NCBI GenBank assembly: GCA_964496065.1
Contig: CAZBXD010000002.1
Coordinates: forward strand, 34,053 to 98,052
Direction: 5' to 3'
Source: an uncultured Bdellovibrionales bacterium
Lineage (GTDB): Bacteria > Pseudomonadota > Alphaproteobacteria > Micavibrionales > SZUA-601
DNA length: 64,000 nt
The notes under the pieces are model-generated. The model had not been told where the DNA came from, searched no databases, and worked only from the letters and a program-made list of their open reading frames with translations. Shown piece after piece: positions 7,801 through 64,000 of the stretch (positions are counted from its first letter, which is position 1; each line of letters opens with the position of its first letter). Position numbers and translations under genes: made by a program.

Positions 7801-9738
7801 TTTCGTGAACTCGGCAAAAATATCCAAACTGAAGAGTTTACGGTTGTTGGTGTCGGCGATATGAGTGGTGATGTGTTTGGCAACGGTATGTTGCTCTCCA
7901 AAAAAATCAAACTTGTCGCTGCCTTTGACCATCGTAATATTTTTGTTGATCCCGATCCTGATCCAGTGGTCAGTTATAACGAACGGTTGCGCTTGTTTAA
8001 AAAACCACGCTCCAGCTGGATGGATTATGATCAAAAGAAACTCTCCAAGGGGGGTCAAATTTTCAACCGCAGCGACAAAACCCTCAAACTGACGAAAGAA
8101 ATCCAGAAACGTCTTGATATTGATAGTGCAACCATCACCCCAACCGAGTTGATGCGTAAACTCTTGCTTGAGGATTGTGAACTCCTCTGGTTTGGGGGGA
8201 TCGGAACCTATATCAAATCAAGTAATCAAAGCCATGACCAGGTTGGCGATAAGGCCAATGATGCCATCCGTGTCAATGCAGAAGACCTGAGGTGTCAGGT
8301 GATCGGCGAAGGTGCCAATCTTGGCGTGACGCAAGCTGGCCGGATTGAGTTTTCAATGAAAGGTGGAAAATGTAACACCGACTTTATTGATAATTCGGCG
8401 GGTGTGGATACATCCGACCATGAGGTCAATCTGAAAATTATGCTGAACCAATTGGTTGCCTCTGGGAAACTCTCAGGCAAGCAGCGCGATACGCTTCTTA
8501 AAAAAATGGAAAATGAAGTTGGACAACATGTCTTGAAAAATAATTATGATCAATCTCTTGTTCTGACCATGACGCATAGTGAGGGCCAAGAGCGCCTTAA
8601 CCGCCATGCCGATCTGATCCGGGATTTGGAAAAGGCTGGGTTTTTTGATCGTCGCATCGAAGACCTACCTGACGAAGATATCTTGCAAGATATGGCAGCC
8701 AGAGGCGGAAAACTTACCCGTCCCGAGCTTTCTGTCATTCTTTCTTATTCAAAAATCCAACTATTTAATCAGCTCCTTGCTTCTAATCTACCAGATGAAA
8801 AACTCATGGAATCTCATTTAGTCGAGTATTTTCCCAAGATGGCTCAGGAGAAATTCAAAAAAAGCATTCTTAGCCACAAACTCAAGCGCGAAATTATCGC
8901 GACTGAAGTGGCCAATGTCGTGATTAACCGTATGGGCCCCGCTTTTGTCAAAACAAAGATTAACCGCACCGGGGCCGAGCCAGTTGATATTGTGCGCGGC
9001 TTCTTATTGGCGCGGGAATGTTTTGACCTCAAAACGCTATGGGGGCGTATTGATGCGCTCGATAATAAAGTCCCGGCGGAACAGCAGCTTCCGATGTATA
9101 TGGCTTGCGCCCGGCTGATGAGCCAATCGGTTAAATGGTTTATTCGCCATTACAAAGCCCCTTTAAGCTTTGACACGTTGGCGCCGATTTATAAAAAAGG
9201 CATCATCAGTTTCACCAAACAATTTGATCAAATCACCCCGCCGTCCATTCGTCAATCGAGTGAGAACCGGTTTAAAGCGATGCGCAACAATGGGGTGACA
9301 GACAAAGCGCTGGCGCAAACGGTCGCCATACTGCCGGTGATGGTAACGGCGCTCGATATTATCTACATCGCTGAGAAATCAAAGCGGAGTTTGGCGCAAG
9401 TTGGACGTCTCTATTTTGCCATCAGCGATCGCTTTAAATTCAATGATCTGATGAATGCGGCCCAAGATATCCCCTCCGAAGGGCATTGGGCAAAAGAGGC
9501 GCAAAATGGTTTGGTTGATGACCTGTATCATGCTTTGAGCGTGATAACCTCCCAATTGGTTAAAAATATCAAAAATAGCGATAAAGATGCAACTGAGCCG
9601 TTAGCAAAATGGATTGAAACCAATGCCGCAGCGGTCAAACAGATCGACAGTATCTTGAAAGATATTCAGCGTTTGAGCACAATTGATATCAATATCCTAA
9701 CCTTGATGACCCAAAAACTAAGAGCATTAGCCACATAA
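4873..9738 (+). CDS. NAD-specific glutamate dehydrogenase, large (about 180 kDa) class
   Basis: About 1621 aa from the ATG at 4873 (the ORF track starts at a GTG at 4852). The central catalytic region reads GGIRWSDR...KGGF...ADKGTATFSD...GGSKGYDHK...GDMSGDVFGNG, typical of the large GDH class. Confidence 0.9.
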   Translation: MMAKPVKKSPSKKDIRSNIIKQAQAVKNIPANHQKNLTAFMTYFFHGETLEQIEETGCTNCFALANTLWQKLQKRAENDIFIRVFNPTQHHHNWTSKYTVIEIIQKKSPFVIDSILEALRGDDHNIYRMFHPVIRTRRDDQGLLVSVHPEQDAAPGLSAESIIHLQIGKIHSKADQAALEKKLNTVLKDVRTAVQDWRPMEGRLADTISDLSEADDKALTKEQSLETIRFLNFLKEGKFTFLGYREYTIKAVQGKPTFTPLKKAGLGILRDDKFLLFDGIRNAKNLPKTVYKSLNDKTPLVIVKANKRSRIHRPAYIDVIGIKRYNKQGNVIGVRLFAGLFTSDCYAQATSYIPYLDKKVSTVIQKSGFETGTHSYKTMQHILETYPRDELFQISIPELKRISRGIMELKHKPSVDVFIRNDTFHRFFSCMVYTPREDFDTGLRLKYSKILEEELQGECIDFYIQVDENSLARVQYIIKTDNYTLPKYNLDRIRNKLYQASRNWYNKLSDIAIEWYGEEKALALLAPLQGCFSAAYQEEMPLRSAVRDIEWLNQAIAGEELQAKLFLNGEEEDGHAHFKIYKTGSAASLSNILPILKNMGFRVITEHPYDMHPASSSKPIWIHELYGQIELGPHQTIKDVRFKFEEAFIKAYQGLIDQDPFNSLILRAGLTPREANIMRAYAKFLHQAGYAYRNATMASVLGKHAKITQKLCTLFKTMHDPKNKKDVAQANAAGLLIEIDHMLSSVDNISEDSIIRSYMRLMRETLRTNYYQETPEGTPFDYLVFKLASKNISDIPAPRPVKEIFIYSTRFEAVHLRGGDIARGGIRWSDRYDDFRTEILGLIKAQIVKNSVIVPVGSKGGFICKNLSRFSTPQDRFEEAKACYRSMMRGMLSITDNIVNNKVIPPKNTVRWDKDDPYLVVAADKGTATFSDIANGISHEFNFWLGDAFASGGSKGYDHKAMGITARGAWESVKRHFRELGKNIQTEEFTVVGVGDMSGDVFGNGMLLSKKIKLVAAFDHRNIFVDPDPDPVVSYNERLRLFKKPRSSWMDYDQKKLSKGGQIFNRSDKTLKLTKEIQKRLDIDSATITPTELMRKLLLEDCELLWFGGIGTYIKSSNQSHDQVGDKANDAIRVNAEDLRCQVIGEGANLGVTQAGRIEFSMKGGKCNTDFIDNSAGVDTSDHEVNLKIMLNQLVASGKLSGKQRDTLLKKMENEVGQHVLKNNYDQSLVLTMTHSEGQERLNRHADLIRDLEKAGFFDRRIEDLPDEDILQDMAARGGKLTRPELSVILSYSKIQLFNQLLASNLPDEKLMESHLVEYFPKMAQEKFKKSILSHKLKREIIATEVANVVINRMGPAFVKTKINRTGAEPVDIVRGFLLARECFDLKTLWGRIDALDNKVPAEQQLPMYMACARLMSQSVKWFIRHYKAPLSFDTLAPIYKKGIISFTKQFDQITPPSIRQSSENRFKAMRNNGVTDKALAQTVAILPVMVTALDIIYIAEKSKRSLAQVGRLYFAISDRFKFNDLMNAAQDIPSEGHWAKEAQNGLVDDLYHALSVITSQLVKNIKNSDKDATEPLAKWIETNAAAVKQIDSILKDIQRLSTIDINILTLMTQKLRALAT

Positions 9739-54511: not shown

Positions 54512-55284
54512 GTATTGAACTGTTCTGTTAGAATTCGTTCATCAAGTGTTTGGTCTGGATCAAATAGAACCCTTACAACATAGTCACGGCTTTTATAGAT
54601 CTCGACCCGATCAACATTTGGAGCAACATCAAAATCCGCCACTGCTGAAACAGGGCGCTTTTCTTTTTCCAATACAGTGAGTGTTACCTTGGCCTGCTGA
54701 TCAAGGATTGCCCCGCGCCAACGCCTTGGCCGAAAAGCAGAAATCGGCGTTAATCCCATAACATTTGCTTGGATTGGAATAATCGGCCCATGTGCAGACA
54801 AATTATAAGCCGTACTGCCAGCGGGCGTGCATACCAAAATACCATCTCCAACATATTCCTCAATCCGAACGACCCCATCAACCTTAACCTCTATTTTCAC
54901 GGCCTGATGTGTTTCACGATAAAGAGAGACTTCGTTAATCGCACGTTTTCGAATATGAGTACCATCGCAACAATGTGCTTCCATAACCAAAGGGTTTAAA
55001 TCAACATAGGTCGCCGCATTAAGCCTTTCCATCAGACCTTCTTCAGTGTAAGTGTTCAAAAGAAAGCCAACGGACCCCTTGTTCATACCATAGATGGGTT
55101 TCTTCAACTCAATATGATTGTGCAAAACATGGAGCATTTGGCCATCACCCCCTATCGCGACAAGACAATCGGCCCGCTCAACAGAGACAACATTATACTT
55201 TTTTGCTAAAATATTCGCTGCTTCTCTTGCCTCTTTCGTGTCTGCCGGTAAAAGCGCTATTGTTTTGATCTTTGACGCTGTCAT
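54508..55284 (-). CDS. nadK: NAD kinase
   Basis: GGDGQMLH motif and a C-terminal NE...D-type domain. The ATG at 55284 is preceded by GAGGGGGAG; the alternative start is at 55302. Confidence 0.85.
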   Translation of the reverse strand: MTASKIKTIALLPADTKEAREAANILAKKYNVVSVERADCLVAIGGDGQMLHVLHNHIELKKPIYGMNKGSVGFLLNTYTEEGLMERLNAATYVDLNPLVMEAHCCDGTHIRKRAINEVSLYRETHQAVKIEVKVDGVVRIEEYVGDGILVCTPAGSTAYNLSAHGPIIPIQANVMGLTPISAFRPRRWRGAILDQQAKVTLTVLEKEKRPVSAVADFDVAPNVDRVEIYKSRDYVVRVLFDPDQTLDERILTEQFNT

Positions 55285-55337
55285 GCTTGAACTCCCCCTC
55301 ATGAACCGTCATAATATAATGGTAAGAGGTAAAAATC

Positions 55338-55814
55338 ATGTATAAAATTTTGATGGTTTGTACTGGTAATATCTGCCGCTCACCAACGGCGCATGGTTTT
55401 TTAGATAATGCGCTCAAAAAAAATAATCTTGAACACATTGTACATGTTGACTCTGCTGGGATAACAGCGACCCATCAAGGGGAATCCCCCGATCCACGCA
55501 GTCAAGATATCGCCCTTCAAAGAGGGATTGATCTATCTTATATTGTATCAAGGCGAATAACCCCTGAAGATTATGAGGATTACGACTTGATTTTAGCGAT
55601 GGACAAAAGTTATCTCAAAAAAATGTCCCAAGATGCCCCAGCCTATACTCATCATAAAATTCATCTCTATCTCGATTTTACTGATCTTCCAGAAGGAAGC
55701 GAGGTCCCTGACCCCTATTACGGAGGTGCCGATGGCTTCCATCTTGTCGTTGATTTAGTTGATGCCGCGACAAGGGGATTGATTTTTATTTTAAAATCAC
55801 AGCTTGCACAATAA
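55338..55814 (+). CDS. low-molecular-weight protein-tyrosine phosphatase
   Basis: 158 aa with the active-site VCTGNICRSP and the DPYY general-acid region. Confidence 0.85.
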   Translation: MYKILMVCTGNICRSPTAHGFLDNALKKNNLEHIVHVDSAGITATHQGESPDPRSQDIALQRGIDLSYIVSRRITPEDYEDYDLILAMDKSYLKKMSQDAPAYTHHKIHLYLDFTDLPEGSEVPDPYYGGADGFHLVVDLVDAATRGLIFILKSQLAQ

Positions 55815-55926
55815 AATCTCTGTGTTACGATTTACAAAATATTAACCACTTTTTTAACAAAAATACGTAGACTCTTTTTGTTGTGTGTGTTGTTTGTTAA
55901 CTACCTGAGTTAACAGATAAAAATTC

Positions 55927-57228
55927 ATGAAGGAGAAAAAAAAGACCGTGTCTTTCTCTTGTATTACAAGATATACCGTTATAGCGTTTTTATTTGTGGC
56001 TTTCGCAATGCCACAACCAGCCCATGCCAAATATAATCCCAAATACGCCTCTATTGTTATAGATGCTGAAACAGGCAAGGTTCTTCGTTCTCGTAATGCT
56101 GACAAACGTCTCTACCCAGCAAGTTTGACAAAAATGATGACTCTATTCCTGACATTTGAAGCGATAGAAGATGGTCGGTTATCGATGAATCAATATATTC
56201 GCTTTTCAAATAAGGCTGCAGCCCAAGAACCCTCAAAAATTGGTTTAAACGCCGGAAGCCGCATCCTTGTGAGAGATGCAATTTTATCGCTGGTTACGAA
56301 GTCTGCTAATGATGTTGCTGTTGTACTAGCTGAAGCAATTGGGGGTAACGAACAGCAATTTGCTGCGATGATGACCCAACGTGCGCGTGCGCTGGGCATG
56401 AAAAATACAACCTTTAAAAATGCTTCAGGGCTTCACCACCCGCGCCAAGTGTCAACAGCGCGCGACATGGCAACTCTGTCGCGGTCATTAATGCAATATT
56501 TTCCCCATTATTACCATTTCTTTTCGACAAATACCTTCAGTTATAAAGGTAAAAACTATAAAAACCACAATAAATTGCTGACGACATATCGGGGTATGGA
56601 CGGGCTAAAAACTGGATATGTCCGCGCTGCTGGTTTTAATTTAGCCGCCTCAGCTGTTCGCGATGATCGCCGGCTTATTGGGGTTGTCTTTGGTGGGCGC
56701 AGCTCAAAAACCCGCAATGACCATATGGCAAAAATTCTTGATGAATCCTTTAATCGTCTACCGCGCAAATCAACGATTATGGTGCATAATGACCTCCCCC
56801 CCGTCCCAGGACGTAAGCCCTCTGTGCCAATTACCGTGGCCGAGATAGATACTCGTAACTATAACAATGAGATTATCGGAGAGGGCGATATTGATGCTGA
56901 GGCTACGCAGCGCCTTCAGGTTGCCCTCGCAAGTGCTGCTGCGACAACAGGGGTTGACCGAACCCTGGCTTCCATTGCACCGTCAATAGGCGATCAAAAC
57001 TGGGGGATACAGGTTGGTGCATTCAAAAGTCGTGCCGCCGGCGATAAAGCTTTACGCGATACGCGCGCAAGTTTGAGTATTATTCCAAGCTATGCGCGCT
57101 CTGTCATTACACCCCTGCAAACCAATGATGGTTTATTCTTCCGGGCTCGAATCATGGGGGTTGATGCGCAAACAGCAGAAAACGCATGTCAACTTCTGGT
57201 AGATTGCCTTGTTATTAGCGCCCGATAG
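55927..57228 (+). CDS. D-alanyl-D-alanine carboxypeptidase (PBP5/6 family) with C-terminal SPOR domain
   Basis: Signal peptide, then SLTKMMT (SxxK), SANDVAV (SxN) and KTGY motifs. The C-terminal WGIQVGAFKSRAAGDKAL...FFRARIMGVDAQTAENACQ segment is SPOR-like. Confidence 0.85.
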   Translation: MKEKKKTVSFSCITRYTVIAFLFVAFAMPQPAHAKYNPKYASIVIDAETGKVLRSRNADKRLYPASLTKMMTLFLTFEAIEDGRLSMNQYIRFSNKAAAQEPSKIGLNAGSRILVRDAILSLVTKSANDVAVVLAEAIGGNEQQFAAMMTQRARALGMKNTTFKNASGLHHPRQVSTARDMATLSRSLMQYFPHYYHFFSTNTFSYKGKNYKNHNKLLTTYRGMDGLKTGYVRAAGFNLAASAVRDDRRLIGVVFGGRSSKTRNDHMAKILDESFNRLPRKSTIMVHNDLPPVPGRKPSVPITVAEIDTRNYNNEIIGEGDIDAEATQRLQVALASAAATTGVDRTLASIAPSIGDQNWGIQVGAFKSRAAGDKALRDTRASLSIIPSYARSVITPLQTNDGLFFRARIMGVDAQTAENACQLLVDCLVISAR

Positions 57229-57247
57229 ACGTTGATAAAGTCCTCTC

Positions 57248-57276
57248 TTGACAGGTTTATTCTTTCAGGGCATTAT
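57248..57276 (+). promoter_or_regulatory. candidate sigma-70 promoter upstream of the DUF882 gene
   Basis: TTGACA (57248-57253), a 17-nt spacer, then CATTAT (57271-57276), about 125 nt upstream of the ATG at 57402. Confidence 0.35.
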
Positions 57277-57401
57277 CACGGCCTAAACCAAGCCTAAATT
57301 GGAAAATTTCTTTTGATAACAACAGGTTATAGTCTTAAGTAACAGTATCTTAAATATTGCAATGATATGTTTGGGCGTTACAAATAACAAAAATATTTAT
57401 T

Positions 57402-58007
57402 ATGTGTGAGAAAATAGAGAATTTGGGTGTGTCGCGCCGTGGCGTGATAAAGATGTTGGGTGTAGGCCTTGTAGCAGCGCCAACCTTGGTAATGCCAACG
57501 CCAGCACAAGCCCTCCTTTTTAGTCGTAAAAAAGAGAAGAAAGAAGCGCCTTTGGCTGGAGACCGTCAAAGAACCCTTTCTTTAATCAATAAAAATACCA
57601 ATGAAACTTATAAGGGAACCTATTGGAAGAATGGATATTATGTCCCAGATGAGCTGGCAAAATTTGATTATCTAATGCGTGATCACCGTCAAAACAGTGT
57701 GCGTCCGATTGACACAGATCTGCTTGATCTGGCTCATGACCTACAAGTGATTTTTGACCAAAAAGATATCCATGTGATTTCTGGTTACCGCTGTAAGAAA
57801 ACCAATGACATGTTGCGTCGTCGCTCTGGTAAAAAAGTAGCACGAAACAGCTATCACATTAAGGGGATGGCTATGGATTTACGTATTCCTGGCATTCCAA
57901 CAAAAGCCATTCGGGAGGCTTCTAAGACTATGGGCGTTGGCGGTGTTGGTTGGTACCCACGTCAAGGCTTCGTCCATATTGATACCGGACCTATCCGTTA
58001 TTGGTAA
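57402..58007 (+). CDS. DUF882/YcbK(MepK)-family peptidase M15-like protein with a Tat signal
   Basis: 201 aa with the twin-arginine signal VSRRGVIKMLGVGLVAAP...AQA. The C-terminal SGYRC...NSYHIKGMAMDL...GGVGWYP...FVHIDTG is the family core. Confidence 0.8.
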   Translation: MCEKIENLGVSRRGVIKMLGVGLVAAPTLVMPTPAQALLFSRKKEKKEAPLAGDRQRTLSLINKNTNETYKGTYWKNGYYVPDELAKFDYLMRDHRQNSVRPIDTDLLDLAHDLQVIFDQKDIHVISGYRCKKTNDMLRRRSGKKVARNSYHIKGMAMDLRIPGIPTKAIREASKTMGVGGVGWYPRQGFVHIDTGPIRYW

Positions 58008-58021
58008 TCTATGATTATTGC

Positions 58022-61000
58022 TTATTTTTTTGAGCTCGTGATTTCAGCTGACGCCATATCAAGACTATTCTTTCTAACTGCCTTACGAATCTGACAATCC
58101 TCTTCAATTTCACGAATACGTTCACAAATCGTATTTGCGCGGTTCGCGGAATAGAGTGGGCCGATATCTAAATACTTTCGATCCGATCTATCATCAGTAA
58201 ATTGTGGTTTTAAAGTGCCAAAAATCTCTGGATGTGCTTTACGCAAACGAACCCATTTTAACATCCTTAACAACCCTGAATTATAACTACCAAGGCGCAG
58301 AACCATCAAATTATCATATTTTTGTTTATTGTGTTTCAGCTCAAGTTCTGCGACTTCAACGTCATCAAGCGCGTCTGAATAAAGAACAAAATCAATCCCG
58401 CTTTCAACCGTCCCCAAAGCGGTGACATCAATAAAATGGTTGCCGGATGTTCGTAACCCACGAATTTCTGTCTCCCCATTTGGAATATTAATAATATAAT
58501 CGCCTGGTGGGACATCTTGGAACAAATAAAACCCATCATACCCGGTTTTTTCGGTTTGGATAATTTCCCGATCCGATGTCATTAATTCCACAGTTAGCTG
58601 GCGCGCTGGGCGTATTTGTTTATTTTTTCCAATCACATTAATGACCCCATCAATTTCTCCGCCGACTGCAATCGGAAAATCAATCTGTTGTACAACACCT
58701 GCCCGTGGCTTAACAGAACGTCCTTGATAAGTGGTAATCCAAAATGGATCATCAAATTTATCCCGGTCAACCGTAATATCTGTCAACCTATCCTCTTGCA
58801 GGCCATATAAAAACGCCGTACCTGTTTTATCTGTTTTTGCCCGTTTCACATCACTTTTTGCAATCACACTCACCCCTTCAAGAAGTTGTTCATCCGCATC
58901 TAAAAGACCATTATTATTCTCATCCAAAAAGGCGCGAGCAGAAACAGCCCCACTATTTGTCATCCGATTACGTGTCATCACCGCTTGATTAGAATAAGGA
59001 TCACGCCCAAGGCCAAAATTCATTGTCATCAACGCTGTTAATTCTTGATCAGAATCATAGCTTAGACGCGGTGTTAGAAGAAATTTATCATTGCGATAAT
59101 TCATAGAAAAACGCCCTTCGGTCAAGTCTGTCTCTAGAAAATTTTCAAGCTCGAGTTCAGCACTTAAATTCGTATTTAATGAGCGTAACCCAGAGACAAG
59201 AAAACTGTTAATCTCTGTATCAGGGGTGACATTATAATTAACCCGAGATCGCCAATGCGTGCCACTATAAACACCGCTGACTGATCCAGATCCGGTAATT
59301 CGATCTTGGTCAGTATCGGCATCATCATGGATATAAGAGGCTTGTTTATTTAAATTCATTCGACGAAAATTTGCCCCAATATTGCCCGACACCTCTGAGC
59401 GCTGCGTATCATCACCCCGTACATCATGTAACCCTTGTAAGGTATAGGATGATCTTCTTGCTAAACGCCCTTGGAGGCGCGCTTCTGTCTCCGAAACTGT
59501 TGGGATGCCCCCTGGATCAACGTCAAAATCATCTGTATTAAATTGTTGCCGCAAGCGAAGCGTATTTTTACCAATCAAACCCTGGGCAATGCCCTCTATA
59601 GCTGTTCCTCCGCCTGTCTCTGCCGCTGTGTTAAGTGTATAGAGAAAGCTATTGCGATTTGTTTGCAAACCCGCAACACCCAAAAGTTCAGCTTGGTTGC
59701 TACGTTGCCAGGCGCGCGTTCCAACAAAGCCCAAAAGGTTATCCGTCAAGCCATATTCATAGCGCGAGGCCAATGCCGGCGTTCCTTCATCAACTGAGTC
59801 AATCTCATTCAAACGATAGGTAACTTTATTCCGCTGAGTCAAAGAGACATCATAAGCACTTTGTCCTTGTTTCAAACGATTACCATAGACCGGTACAGAT
59901 CTGGTTTCTTCACGAATTTGTCCCTGTGGACCATAAAATACCAGACGAAATTCGTTATCACCAAAAAAGAGTTCAACATTTTGGAAATCATAGCGACCAG
60001 AAGAATCAACTTGTTGAACCCCAATCAGAATATCATTGCGAAACAATTCAACATCCCATCCCGGTTGTACATCCCCCTGCAATTGTATCGTGTCACTAAT
60101 ATCTTCATCACTAATATTTGATGAAAGACGGACGCCTCTTTCTTGGCCAGAATCATCAACAATCGCTAAACGGGTTGGGGTAATATCCCCTAAGCTCACC
60201 TCATCCACCCCAAATGGCCCCAGGTCTTCACCCTCATCTGCTTTACGGTTCAGCGTAAGACGAACCTCTTGAACAGACTCATCCTTTGTCCCTTGGATAA
60301 AGGTTTTGGCATTCATATACCCCAGATCATTCGCCCCAATAAGAGAGTAGCGGGCGGTTGTCGTTGCATCGCGATCCGGTCGTTTTGAATATGCACCGCT
60401 TAGCTGAACATCAACAAATGGCTCGGTGATAAAGCGATAGGGATCCCTCTCATAGGGCAAAATAGGCCGGCGTGAGACATACTCAAACTCTCGAGCCCGT
60501 TTATCGCGCAAAAGACGGGTTTCAATCGGTAGAGGGTCTTGTGAATCAACAACAATGGCCAACATCTCCAGATCGGCCTCTAGATGCAAATCAAACCACT
60601 CTGCAAGGGTTTCAAAGCGCACTAACAAATCTGTGCCATCATTGATAACATCTTGTTCTTGGATTGTGTAGCGCCGCCCATCTACTTCAACAAAGGCTTG
60701 CGTGACATCCATATAAAAGGGCTTATCCTCAGAAATATACCACCCACTCGCCATCTGACTATCAAGATTGATATCAATCGGAAAATCAACCGCTGACAAA
60801 AACTCAAAAAGCGACAGATAAAGGGTATTATTCTGTTTTATACTGAGCAATCCTTCCGATAAAACAATCTTTTCTGTTGCTACGAGAAGAATCAACTCCT
60901 CCCCCTCACCAATTGAGCGAAGTCGGTCATTAAACTTGTCATAGTTGCTTAAAACACTCTCATCTGACAGATAGCTATCATCCGCCATCATTCTGTCAAA

Positions 61001-61162
61001 TTTTTGTCCAATACTTGCCATAAACTTCGATGCAAGGGACCGCTTCTCTTGTGTGGTTATCTCTTGAGCGGCTGATGTTTCGAATCCAGTCACATCCGCA
61101 ACCCCTTGATTCGGGTACAAAAACACAAAAATCATGCTCACTAGGAATATGATTCGGTGCAT
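58022..61162 (-). CDS. outer-membrane usher-like protein with extended C-terminus (beta-sandwich domains plus SPOR-like end)
   Basis: 1046 aa from the ATG at 61162 (signal MHRIIFLVSMIFVFLYPNQGVA); a longer start is at 61192. It has a long amphipathic beta-strand region. A plug-like block reads SLGDITPTRLAIVDDSGQERGVRLSSN...GWDVELFRNDILIGVQQVDSSGRYDFQNVELFFGDNEFRLVFYGPQGQIREETRSVPVY, comparable to FimD/PapC. Two further C-terminal blocks follow: RAFLDENNNGLLDADEQLLEGVSV...TDKTGTAFLYGL and GEIDGVI...TEKTGYDGFYLFQDVPPGDYII. The call is by motif and architecture only. Confidence 0.5.
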   Translation of the reverse strand: MHRIIFLVSMIFVFLYPNQGVADVTGFETSAAQEITTQEKRSLASKFMASIGQKFDRMMADDSYLSDESVLSNYDKFNDRLRSIGEGEELILLVATEKIVLSEGLLSIKQNNTLYLSLFEFLSAVDFPIDINLDSQMASGWYISEDKPFYMDVTQAFVEVDGRRYTIQEQDVINDGTDLLVRFETLAEWFDLHLEADLEMLAIVVDSQDPLPIETRLLRDKRAREFEYVSRRPILPYERDPYRFITEPFVDVQLSGAYSKRPDRDATTTARYSLIGANDLGYMNAKTFIQGTKDESVQEVRLTLNRKADEGEDLGPFGVDEVSLGDITPTRLAIVDDSGQERGVRLSSNISDEDISDTIQLQGDVQPGWDVELFRNDILIGVQQVDSSGRYDFQNVELFFGDNEFRLVFYGPQGQIREETRSVPVYGNRLKQGQSAYDVSLTQRNKVTYRLNEIDSVDEGTPALASRYEYGLTDNLLGFVGTRAWQRSNQAELLGVAGLQTNRNSFLYTLNTAAETGGGTAIEGIAQGLIGKNTLRLRQQFNTDDFDVDPGGIPTVSETEARLQGRLARRSSYTLQGLHDVRGDDTQRSEVSGNIGANFRRMNLNKQASYIHDDADTDQDRITGSGSVSGVYSGTHWRSRVNYNVTPDTEINSFLVSGLRSLNTNLSAELELENFLETDLTEGRFSMNYRNDKFLLTPRLSYDSDQELTALMTMNFGLGRDPYSNQAVMTRNRMTNSGAVSARAFLDENNNGLLDADEQLLEGVSVIAKSDVKRAKTDKTGTAFLYGLQEDRLTDITVDRDKFDDPFWITTYQGRSVKPRAGVVQQIDFPIAVGGEIDGVINVIGKNKQIRPARQLTVELMTSDREIIQTEKTGYDGFYLFQDVPPGDYIINIPNGETEIRGLRTSGNHFIDVTALGTVESGIDFVLYSDALDDVEVAELELKHNKQKYDNLMVLRLGSYNSGLLRMLKWVRLRKAHPEIFGTLKPQFTDDRSDRKYLDIGPLYSANRANTICERIREIEEDCQIRKAVRKNSLDMASAEITSSKK

Positions 61163-61401
61163 ATATATGTTGTTTTTTATATCCATAAACAATTTATTTT
61201 TTAACTTTTAGACCCATGTTAAAGCGCTTATTTCAAGGGCTTCAGCCGCACTCCCTTATATAACGGGGATATGTTTAACTCCATGTTAAGAAGAACCGAA
61301 TATCATATTGTCATGAATGATTAATAGGCGGGCATGTCGATTGATCATAATAATAAATCACTTAACTCGGGGACCCCCGATTATCTGAAAGGACTTTAGA
61401 G

Positions 61402-61989
61402 ATGACTAAGTTTACAACTAAAACAAAAATTTTGGCCTTAGCCTTGACGACGTGTTCTGTACTTGCACTCGGGAGTGCCGAAGCTGAAACTGTTAACTCA
61501 ACGGCGGATGTAACGGTACAAAACGCGATTACCTTTACTGAAACTTCTGCGCTAACATTCGGAACAATCGTTGCCATCGGTGACGGTACAGCTGGTGGTG
61601 CCGCTGCTACTATCGACATCGGTGTTGGCGTAGCCAATGACACAACTGTTAGTACCCCTGCTGTCCCTGGTACAGATGATTTGATCATCGAATTGGTTGC
61701 AGGGGACCGGGCTGAATATGCGATTTCTGGTGCGGCTCCAAACACGGATCTGACCGTAACAATCCCAGCAGCGCCGGTTGTATTGAACTGTGGTGGATGT
61801 TCTGGTGCTCAGCCTGACTTTACTGTTGACACATGGATTGATAACTCTACCGCTGGTGTATTAACAACTGACGGTGCTGGTGCTCAGACATTGTTCGTTG
61901 GGGCAACTTTGAACACAGACCCAACAGCAATAAACCCATACGAAGATGGGAACTACACTGGTGCTTACACTGTAGAAGTTAACTACTAA
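61402..61989 (+). CDS. secreted fibre subunit candidate (DUF4402-like), probable major subunit
   Basis: 195 aa with signal peptide ...LALGSAEA/ET. It is Thr/Gly/Ala/Val-rich, carries a TFGTIVA motif near the N-terminus, and ends GNYTGAYTVEVNY-stop. It is followed by a strong terminator. Confidence 0.55.
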   Translation: MTKFTTKTKILALALTTCSVLALGSAEAETVNSTADVTVQNAITFTETSALTFGTIVAIGDGTAGGAAATIDIGVGVANDTTVSTPAVPGTDDLIIELVAGDRAEYAISGAAPNTDLTVTIPAAPVVLNCGGCSGAQPDFTVDTWIDNSTAGVLTTDGAGAQTLFVGATLNTDPTAINPYEDGNYTGAYTVEVNY

Positions 61990-62005
61990 GAATTACACAA
62001 TTTAG

Positions 62006-62036
62006 AAAAACGCCCCTGAATTGGGGCGTTTTTTTA
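62006..62036 (+). terminator. rho-independent terminator/attenuator after the first subunit gene
   Basis: AAAAACGCCCC (62006-62016), loop TGAATT, GGGGCGTTTTT (62023-62033), running into a T7 tract (62029-62035). Confidence 0.6.
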
Positions 62037-62072
62037 TTCTCAAATTAACAATTACAGTTTATAGATAACAAT

Positions 62073-62528
62073 ATGCGGTATCTTTTTCTTATCATATTAT
62101 TTTTCATGACAAGCTTCGCCTTTGAAGCACACGCCGTCATTATCGAAGAACGTCCTTTTACCTATGGCACCCTTGTGGTCACCGATAATAGTGCGGTTTA
62201 TTCCATGCGGGTTCGCCGGAATGGCAATATTAACCCCATCGATCCCCAGCTTATCCAAATTGGGACTGTTAACTCTGCCCGCTTTGATTTCCAAGGCTTT
62301 CCTGCTAACACTGCCTTGATTGTAACATTTACCCCGACAACTGTTACAGGTCCCGGATCAAATTTTTTTACCATTACTAATTTTGATTTACCGGGTAATA
62401 TGACCACTAATGGTTCCGGCAATCGAAATAATCGCAATATTGGCTCAACGATTAACACATCCGGAAATGGCCTGCCCTATACTGATGGGAATTATACTGG
62501 CACCATTCTTGTTGAGGCCGTCTTTTAA
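62073..62528 (+). CDS. secreted fibre subunit candidate 2 (DUF4402-like)
   Basis: 151 aa with signal ...FAFEAHA/VI, a FTYGTLVV motif, and a C-terminus TSGNGLPYTDGNYTGTILVEAVF-stop that parallels the first subunit. Confidence 0.5.
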   Translation: MRYLFLIILFFMTSFAFEAHAVIIEERPFTYGTLVVTDNSAVYSMRVRRNGNINPIDPQLIQIGTVNSARFDFQGFPANTALIVTFTPTTVTGPGSNFFTITNFDLPGNMTTNGSGNRNNRNIGSTINTSGNGLPYTDGNYTGTILVEAVF

Positions 62529-62530
62529 CT

Positions 62531-62602
62531 ACCTCTGGTAATGGGATGTCGTATACAGATGGGAACTACAGCGGCACCATGACTCTCACGGTGACATATT
62601 AA
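62531..62602 (+). pseudogene. orphan 3' cassette: a second copy of the last 23 codons plus stop of a subunit gene, with no start codon
   Basis: It translates to TSGNGMSYTDGNYSGTMTLTVTY-stop. It begins 2 nt after the stop of the preceding gene, in a different frame. It is codon-for-codon colinear with that gene's last 23 codons (TSGNGLPYTDGNYTGTILVEAVF-stop). Confidence 0.45.
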
Positions 62603-62679
62603 ATTTAATTAAAATCATAAAGTATCTTGCCCTGCCCCCTCTCTTTCGGTTACTTTGAAAGGTATCTATGAGGTGTGAT

Positions 62680-63507
62680 ATGAAATCTTTATTCAAAACG
62701 CTAGTTCTTAGCATTCTATGCCTGTTTTTTATCGTCCCTGTTGCGCAGGCCGATTTGTTTATTAGTCCATTAAGGGTCGTTTTTGAAGGGCGTGATCGTT
62801 CCGCCCTCGTTACCCTACTTAACCGCTCTCAGGAGATTAATACCTACCGAATTTATTGGAAAGATAAGGTTTTTAACCCTGAGACCAATAATTATCAAGA
62901 TGTTGAGGCACTGGGAACCGCTGGTGGCGGGGTCTCAGAAATGATTCGTTACAGCCCACGTCAGATTACCCTTCGTCCCGGTGAAAATCAAAAAATTCGC
63001 CTGGCTGTGCGCAAACCAGGCGATCTTGCTGATGGGGAATATCGCTCTCACCTTGTCTTTGAAAAAGTCCCTGATATCCCTGACGAAAGTCTCACACCAA
63101 AAGAAGGGGCAACATTAAAACTCTACGTCAATCTCTCTTTTGCTATTCCGATCTATGTGCGGCAAGGCATTAGTGTCGATACGCTTCAGGCTTCGATCTC
63201 AAACACCTCTATTCGTCGCGATCGAGAAACCAATAATCCGGTTATTGATCTCACGATCTCCAAAAGCGACCCAACACAAAGCGCTATTGGTAAAATCATG
63301 GTCTATAACGTTGATGCCGGTGGAAAACAGGGGAGCGTTATTGGCATTCTTAACAATGCCGGTGTTTTGAAAGAGCTCACCTCACGTGATTTCTCTGTTG
63401 AGTTGAGCCAAGGCCCCATTACAGGAAACCAAATCTATGTGGTTTATAAAGGCGATGATGAATTTTCAGGGATCGTGTGGGATGAACAAATTATTAACCT
63501 TAATTGA
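62680..63507 (+). CDS. PapD-like periplasmic pilus chaperone
   Basis: Signal ...VPVAQA/DL, then LFISPLRVVFEGRDRSALVTLLN and ITLRPGENQKIRLAVRKPGDLADGEYRSHLVFEKVP, typical of chaperone N-domains. The ATG at 62680 is preceded by GAGG; the alternative start is at 62668. Confidence 0.65.
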   Translation: MKSLFKTLVLSILCLFFIVPVAQADLFISPLRVVFEGRDRSALVTLLNRSQEINTYRIYWKDKVFNPETNNYQDVEALGTAGGGVSEMIRYSPRQITLRPGENQKIRLAVRKPGDLADGEYRSHLVFEKVPDIPDESLTPKEGATLKLYVNLSFAIPIYVRQGISVDTLQASISNTSIRRDRETNNPVIDLTISKSDPTQSAIGKIMVYNVDAGGKQGSVIGILNNAGVLKELTSRDFSVELSQGPITGNQIYVVYKGDDEFSGIVWDEQIINLN

Positions 63508-63562
63508 TTATCCAAAAAGATAACAACAGGAATAAAGCGTGATAAAACACACGGCGCACAGA

Positions 63563-64000
63563 ATGACAAAACCCGCTAAAAAGCTTGTAGATCCGCTTTT
63601 TGTCCTTGTCATTTTGACACTGATTTTTGTGCCCGTTTTGAATGCCTGTAGCACCACACCGCGCTCTTCTGGTGCGACGCAAATTGACACCTCAAACATT
63701 GATACAAATACGCTGAAATTGCCGGACGGATATGAATGGGATGGTGAAGAAGATGACATGGAAGAGAATGAAGAAACCAGCCAATCGTCTTTTACCAAGG
63801 GGACAACCATGTCCTTCAGAGCTGACCGAAATGCGCCAACTGCAACACGTCTTGCAGCAATTGAAGATCAACTTGAGCTTCTCAGACAAGATTTTAATGA
63901 ACTCTATCCAAGTATGCGACGTTTAATGGCGATTGAACAAGATATGCAAGAGTTAATCATGGAGTTGAAGTCTCTGACCACAGATGTTGCCGCGCAACCT
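63563..64000 (+). CDS. lipoprotein with an acidic linker and coiled-coil region; 3' end outside the window
   Basis: The open frame runs to the window edge, which is why it is absent from the ORF track. It begins MTKPAKKLVDPLFVLVILTLIFVPVLNAC (lipobox-like), has an acidic stretch EWDGEEDDMEENEE, then a heptad-like LAAIEDQLELLRQDFNELYPSMRRLMAIEQDMQELIMELKSL. Confidence 0.45.
   Translation, partial: MTKPAKKLVDPLFVLVILTLIFVPVLNACSTTPRSSGATQIDTSNIDTNTLKLPDGYEWDGEEDDMEENEETSQSSFTKGTTMSFRADRNAPTATRLAAIEDQLELLRQDFNELYPSMRRLMAIEQDMQELIMELKSLTTDVAAQP

Follow-up and report, generated by a model that had tools for sequence, protein, structure and literature searches.

The window, by which we mean the whole 64,000-nucleotide stretch of DNA that was analysed, carries an uncharacterised chaperone-dependent pilus-like system with the following genes and features:

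58022-61192, minus strand: large protein of 1056 aa, presumed to be an outer-membrane assembly component (usher analogue)
61402-61989, plus strand: subunit 1, a DUF4402 protein of 195 aa and the presumed major subunit (Pfam E = 1.3e-09)
62014-62035, 3' of subunit 1: terminator-like hairpin with a T-run, aaaacgcccc..ggggcgttttttt
62073-62528, plus strand: subunit 2, an intact DUF4402 minor-subunit gene of 151 aa
62668-63507, plus strand: PapD-like periplasmic chaperone of 279 aa

Subunit 2 matches the Pfam family DUF4402 with E = 6.5e-06 and 27.3 bits (cut-off 25.2), and is 74% identical to its orthologue P0002 at the related locus L002 and 70% identical to the first subunit-2-type gene of L003. 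An AlphaFold2 model built from a 10-sequence alignment is all-beta, at low confidence (pLDDT 55, pTM 0.38). The NCBI-derived protein P0001 begins 11 codons past the ATG at 62073 (MTSFAFEAHA..; skipped stretch 62073-62105); the 151-aa form with a normal signal peptide is supported because the orthologues P0002-P0004 start with MRY. The hairpin sequence downstream of subunit 1 recurs in L001 (about 7940-7965) and L002 (about 545-572), and fits a partial terminator that gives a high ratio of major to minor subunit, as in classical pilus operons.

The chaperone matches PDB 4ncd (E = 7.6e-06) and CfaA (4y2o, E = 1.1e-04); its match to Pfam PapD_N (E = 0.0017, 18.8 bits) lies under the gathering cut-off of 23, and its homologues are named fimbrial chaperones by their sources, many of them carrying PF00345. 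The large protein has a short SdrD_B-like match only, with no match to the usher family (PF00577) in Pfam or NCBIfam and no relative in the PDB. Counterparts of 1031-1191 aa stand beside subunit and chaperone genes at L001, L004, L006, L010, L013 and L015 (for example L001 3968-7114, L004 1304-4474, L013 6247-9822 and L015 2460-5672), and the large protein may represent a novel kind of platform for assembling a chaperone-dependent pilus at the outer membrane. One or two DUF4402 subunits together with a chaperone and a 1031-1191-aa protein form a core that recurs in distant loci, and a literature search for DUF4402 found no paper.

A fifth gene follows that of the chaperone (window 63540-64000, where it runs off the end; L001 9924-10988; L004 6874-7917). 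It is conserved and encodes about 350 aa with no Pfam family on record in L001. Its product, with an N-terminus resembling a lipobox (..VLNACSTTP.. in the window) and a conserved RLMAIEQDMQ segment, may be a lipoprotein that belongs to the system.

Two subunit tails side by side

The end of subunit 2 is followed by a second, related tail that belongs to no intact gene:

62457-62528, plus strand: copy 1, the last 24 codons of subunit 2, translated TSGNGLPYTDGNYTGTILVEAVF-stop
62531-62602, plus strand: copy 2 (the orphan), 24 codons including the stop and colinear with copy 1, translated TSGNGMSYTDGNYSGTMTLTVTY-stop

The two copies align without gaps, with 47 of 72 nt and 13 of 23 aa identical; the period between them is exactly 74 nt, and TAA closes both. 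A sequence-only reading of the same DNA had described this colinear 24-codon copy two nucleotides after subunit 2, and its translations and coordinates are confirmed from the sequence; the feature as such is real, but the start of the span that it gave, 62458, is off by one. Also correct is its description of the orphan as lying in the -1 frame, without a start codon, in a frame that opens at 62516 after a TGA (62513-62515): the frame is +2 (equivalent to -1) relative to subunit 2, since (62531-62073) mod 3 = 2. The orphan likewise has no ribosome-binding site and no in-frame link to an expressed gene, and internal ATGs of its frame would yield peptides of at most 18 aa only.

Codon by codon, the first 16 positions comprise 6 that are identical, 7 with synonymous and 3 with non-synonymous differences, for which the Nei-Gojobori method gives pS 0.75, pN 0.08 and pN/pS 0.11 (Fisher P = 2e-5). 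In the last 7 sense codons all differences are non-synonymous (7/7; pN/pS about 1.1 by the same method), only 8 of the last 21 nt are identical, and the longest identical run shared by the two copies is 8 nt. The pN/pS of the first 16 codons bears out the earlier proposal that the copy evolved as coding sequence. The motif TSGNG..Y.DG.Y.G occurs throughout the family, with T, S, G, Y, Y and G invariant and N, G and G nearly so, which is why the tails align well over their first half but not over the last strand. The orphan keeps all nine of the family-conserved residues and has no internal stop.

The similarity of the two tails is not due to chance. When all offsets from 72 to 200 were considered across the 64-kb window, at least 45 ungapped matches in 72 nt occurred at one place only (offset 74, positions 62441-62461), and an HMM made from nine intact tails, with the orphan excluded, gives the orphan peptide a score of 38.9 bits. 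The sequence-only reading had named a loss of the similarity in a proper alignment as counting against it, and no such loss is seen. Tandem Repeats Finder did not report the pair of copies, because they are too diverged.

A third subunit gene in syntenic relatives

Contigs L001, L002 and L003 were reached through homologues of subunit 2, L012 through a protein search with the chaperone, and L004 through a scan of genome contigs with a chaperone profile. By blastn, window 55055-62509 is colinear with L001 1012-8449 (71.7% over 7.5 kb) and window 62594-63993 with L001 8979-10381 (68.7%). The gap between the two colinear blocks measures 84 nt in the window as against 529 nt in L001, and the approximately 445 nt that are absent from the window form the body of a third subunit gene. 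A full-length third subunit, for which the sequence-only reading had suggested searching related strains, is found at several of these loci:

L001 8535-8987: gene 3 (P0007), 150 aa, between subunit 2 and the chaperone gene
L002, about 1623-2077: complete third-type gene, directly before the chaperone gene, ending in ..AYSGSMMLDVTF-stop
L003 1006-1431 plus L012 1-13: complete third-type gene, before the chaperone gene, its end in L012 reading ..VTF-stop

Gene 3 of L001, paralogous to subunit 2 at 44% identity, ends in ...NYSGDTILTITY-TAA, the protein in TSGTAIPYGSGNYSGDTILTITY-stop. The 28 nt that follow its stop, ATTTAATTAAAATCATAAAGTATCTTGC, are identical to the 28 nt that follow the stop of the orphan. 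What was observed directly is the synteny, the complete gene that relatives have at this position, the sequence identity just past the stop and the width of the gap; on these grounds the orphan is orthologous, by position, to the 3' end of the final subunit gene. The proposal of the sequence-only reading that it is the relic of a deleted third paralogue is thereby supported.

The tail of 23 aa is not decisive alone, and for this reason the assignment of the orphan to the third gene depends chiefly on where it lies and on the DNA that follows it: the orphan shares 13 of 23 aa with the tail of L001 gene 3, and 13-16 of 23 with the tails of subunit 2 and of the related 2' type. YSG, M17 and L.VT are common to the orphan and to the third-gene ends of L002 and L012. 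At the nucleotide level, 49 of 72 positions match in comparisons of the orphan with the subunit-2 tails of both L002 and L003, against 47 of 72 with its own neighbour; being no closer to its neighbour than to these foreign tails, the orphan is not a recent duplicate made in situ. The tail of subunit 2 itself, ..TILVEAVF, is orthologous to the subunit-2 tails of L002 (..TILLEITF) and L003 (..TILLEVTY), so that nothing has been swapped, contrary to the suggestion that the locus records a replaced C-terminal strand. In the search for closer relatives whose intact third gene would end as the orphan does, which used a profile including a chimera with the orphan tail, a chaperone search, a scan of genome contigs and a metagenome scan, nothing exceeded 63-74% protein identity; the nearest relative of the chaperone is 67% identical.

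The shared downstream flank includes one further feature of the window:

62600-62640, plus strand: AT-rich block, TAAATTTAATTAAAATCATAAAGTATCTTGCCCT..., standing between the genes of the last subunit and the chaperone, and marking what originally flanked the third gene downstream

This block of about 35-40 nt, (T)AAATTTAATTAAAAT(C/A/G)ATAAAGTATCTTGCCCT.CCCC, stands upstream of the chaperone gene at L001 8985-9025, L004 5931-5972, L012 46-90 and L002 2113-2131 as well as in the window. It is nearly identical in these five loci, as compared with about 70% identity in the flanking coding DNA, and may be a promoter, an operator or a processing site for the chaperone gene and the genes downstream.

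A probable deletion that joined two paralogous tails

We consider it very probable that the orphan is the non-functional 3' remnant of a deleted third DUF4402 pilus-subunit gene. The mechanism of the deletion, its recency and the lack of function of the remnant are what we infer; the features to which the model refers are:

62525-62602, plus strand: remnant, with 23 sense codons and a stop, and probably also TTA ACT (62525-62530), which overlaps the TAA of subunit 2
62525-62529, plus strand: putative deletion junction TTAAC, which fits the end of subunit 2 (tt-TAA-c) as well as codons of the third gene (TTA AC-t)

The ancestor would have had at least one further paralogous subunit gene between subunit 2 and the chaperone gene, as the relatives do. 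The deletion would have begun just past the stop of subunit 2 and extended to about codon -26 of the final subunit gene, removing about 0.45 kb if L001 is taken as the guide and about 0.9 kb if the ancestor had a four-gene array like that of L002 and L003. It would have spared the final 24-26 codons with their stop, and the intergenic DNA that originally lay downstream. The two tails lie side by side and out of frame because the deletion joined the ends of two paralogues, and the synonymous bias between them would be ordinary paralogue divergence, both genes having presumably been under purifying selection before the deletion. The remnant is now probably a passenger in a transcript that runs from subunit 2 into the chaperone gene.

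Upstream of the ACC at 62531 stands TTA ACT (Leu-Thr), so that from 62525 the orphan frame reads L-T-T-S-G-N-G; its third-gene counterparts read ...T-L-T-T-S-G-N-G in L003 and ...T-L-S-T-S-G-N-G in L002. The agreement of LTTSGNG with gene 3 of L003 indicates that the remnant probably begins at 62525, in which case the tails overlap by 4 nt instead of standing 2 nt apart. The junction possibly lies at TTAAC, judging from its double reading, and would then have up to 5 nt of microhomology, as a deletion between short direct repeats leaves. Both the junction and the undeleted ancestral sequence are reconstructions, because the sampled relatives are too distant.

In a simulation of neutral decay, a remnant that stays free of stops and retains the nine residues is expected with P = 0.33, 0.11 and 0.035 at 0.05, 0.10 and 0.15 substitutions per site, respectively. 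From this we take the deletion to be recent when set against the divergence of the relatives sampled (about 30% of nucleotides), and the undecayed look of the remnant is also compatible with some constraint on its sequence.

Alternative explanations

The same arrangement could in principle have arisen without any deletion, if 74 nt (the last 24 codons of subunit 2 and 2 nt) had been copied in situ and the untranslated copy had then drifted, and the colinearity of the copies, their period of exactly 74 nt and the TAA at both ends are what such a duplication would produce. An untranslated copy would, however, diverge evenly and without synonymous bias, whereas the observed pN/pS is 0.11 and only 8/21 nt agree at the end. 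Nor does the identity between the orphan and its neighbour exceed that between the orphan and the subunit-2 tails of L002 and L003; the orphan stop abuts the block before the chaperone gene exactly as the stop of L001 gene 3 does, and in relatives a whole gene occupies the position of the orphan. We therefore regard a duplication as very improbable, and "tandem duplicate of the subunit C-terminus", as the sequence-only reading had titled the feature, is misleading for an arrangement that would come from a deletion, with no duplication. There is a similarly slim chance that the third gene is intact in the organism and that the assembler collapsed the paralogous region. Tandem paralogues are a classical cause of such collapse, and the contig of one relative (L002) has frameshifts of the kind typical of noisy assemblies; but a collapse joins homologous positions and so makes a single chimeric gene, not two full tails in tandem, and the identical run of 8 nt is far under the k-mer sizes of assemblers. 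Moreover, the proteins of the window are deposited at NCBI in the same form, on a 111.6-kb contig, and the chromosome-level MAG L004 is likewise without gene 3, which makes a loss biologically plausible.

A functional role for the orphan is likewise hard to credit, whether as an alternative or extra C-terminus reached by a -1 frameshift at the end of subunit 2, as a donor cassette for gene conversion, or as a 3' end that carries expression signals for the chaperone. In favour of such a role are the intact frame of the remnant with all its family-conserved residues, the strong conservation at five loci of the block directly downstream, sigma-70-like hexamers over the end of the remnant (GTGACA at 62591, 16 nt, AATCAT), and the gap of L004, which has lost gene 3 and still ends in the conserved block. 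As for frameshifting, a search for heptamers of the form X XXY YYZ found no slippery site before 62528, GTC TTT TAA allows re-pairing in +1, a frame that is closed after 5 codons, and not in -1, and the RNA fold of 62490-62680, as a stimulatory structure, is no better than that of shuffled sequences (z = +1.30); frameshifting would in any case add a second tail without replacing the first. On the lack of a heptamer and on the fold, programmed frameshifting was rejected. The silent cassette for recombinational variation, which the sequence-only reading had offered as its third option, finds no favour in the data either: there is a single copy, a tail HMM run against six-frame translations of the whole 64-kb window and of 11-14 related loci found no further cassettes, and the identical runs are at most 8 nt long, whereas RecA-dependent exchange generally needs roughly 25 bp of identity. 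With regard to expression signals, promoter-like matches in the region number 4 against 3.8 expected from shuffles, and neither L001 nor L004 has the -35-like hexamer at the corresponding position.

Subunit number among relatives

The number of DUF4402 genes between the large protein and the chaperone is two in L004, three in L001, four in L002 and at least three in L003 with L012, and this range of two to four implies that gain and loss in the array are recurrent. L002 and L003/L012 have an extra gene of the 2' type. The distribution indicates that the minor subunits undergo birth-and-death turnover. In loci further removed there are two subunits, without an orphan. The arrays extend over L001 7330-8987, L002 1-2077, L003 2-1431 and L004 4607-5823 and consist of types 1, 2, 2' and 3, with type 2 retained in the window and type 2' in L001 and L004.

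L004, a 1.65-Mb Alphaproteobacteria MAG chromosome, has subunits 1 and 2' only, followed by a gap of 177 nt before the chaperone gene. The 5' part of this gap aligns with the spacer between the 2' gene and gene 3 of L002 together with the ATG of gene 3, at a score that 1 of 1000 shuffles reaches; its 3' part is not supported as a remnant of gene 3 (shuffle P = 0.075-0.59). The alignment suggests that L004 lost its third gene independently, with different breakpoints. In L002, the 2' and third genes (1100-2077) contain several frameshifts and a small deletion, for example an extra C in ggacttcccctatacc; these defects suggest a noisy assembly, not true pseudogenes.

A further reading, which we consider improbable, would have the extreme 3' end of the remnant and the adjoining block serve as an expression signal, a promoter or a processing site, for the chaperone gene and those downstream, with the remnant kept by selection and not by recency alone; more widely, the locus would represent an uncharacterised pilus family in which minor subunits come and go by birth and death. 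If the expression signal were real, viable deletions would be only those that spare the 3' end and the block; the family of this reading would be chaperone-dependent and would combine DUF4402 subunits with a non-usher-like protein of about 1050 aa.

With the orphan taken as a deletion remnant, it records a clean, datable gene loss in an array of pilus-subunit paralogues of a small-genome alphaproteobacterial lineage, and the third subunit would be dispensable in at least some lineages. It also holds a warning for annotation: a well-kept, motif-bearing frame after a fimbrial gene may mark the scar of a deletion, with no cassette or recoding involved. The system of DUF4402 subunits, chaperone and large protein, which is uncharacterised, is of more interest than the remnant.

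Comparison with known systems

Judged by the chaperone sequence, the closest known systems are the chaperone-usher pili of the alternate and archaic kinds (CFA/I with CfaA, Csu). The likeness lies in small secreted subunits with a conserved, aromatic-ended C-terminal strand encoded beside a PapD-like chaperone gene, in an N-terminal ..SPLRVVF.. of the chaperone that resembles the Arg8 region of PapD, and in the presence of a large linked protein. The subunits here differ in belonging to DUF4402, an uncharacterised family, the large partner is without a usher-family match, and a conserved fifth gene follows the chaperone gene.

The orphan itself invites comparison with the pilS cassettes of Neisseria, which provide antigenic variation through gene conversion of pilE and which are likewise promoterless, 5'-truncated copies of a pilus subunit beside an expressed copy. 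The pilS loci, however, are multiple and long, and extended conserved segments common to pilS and pilE support their RecA-dependent gene conversion, whereas here one copy of 72 nt shares identical runs of no more than 8 nt with its neighbour and has no counterpart elsewhere in the window or in the relatives. The orphan is better compared with the remnants that deletions leave in tandem arrays of fimbrial-subunit genes, which it resembles as a promoterless, startless, 5'-truncated piece with its original flank kept. From an ordinary truncated-pseudogene remnant there is no essential difference, and the odd look of the locus comes from paralogous tails that the deletion left in register. A deletion scar in a tandem gene family is a very familiar kind of feature, of which this is a new instance.
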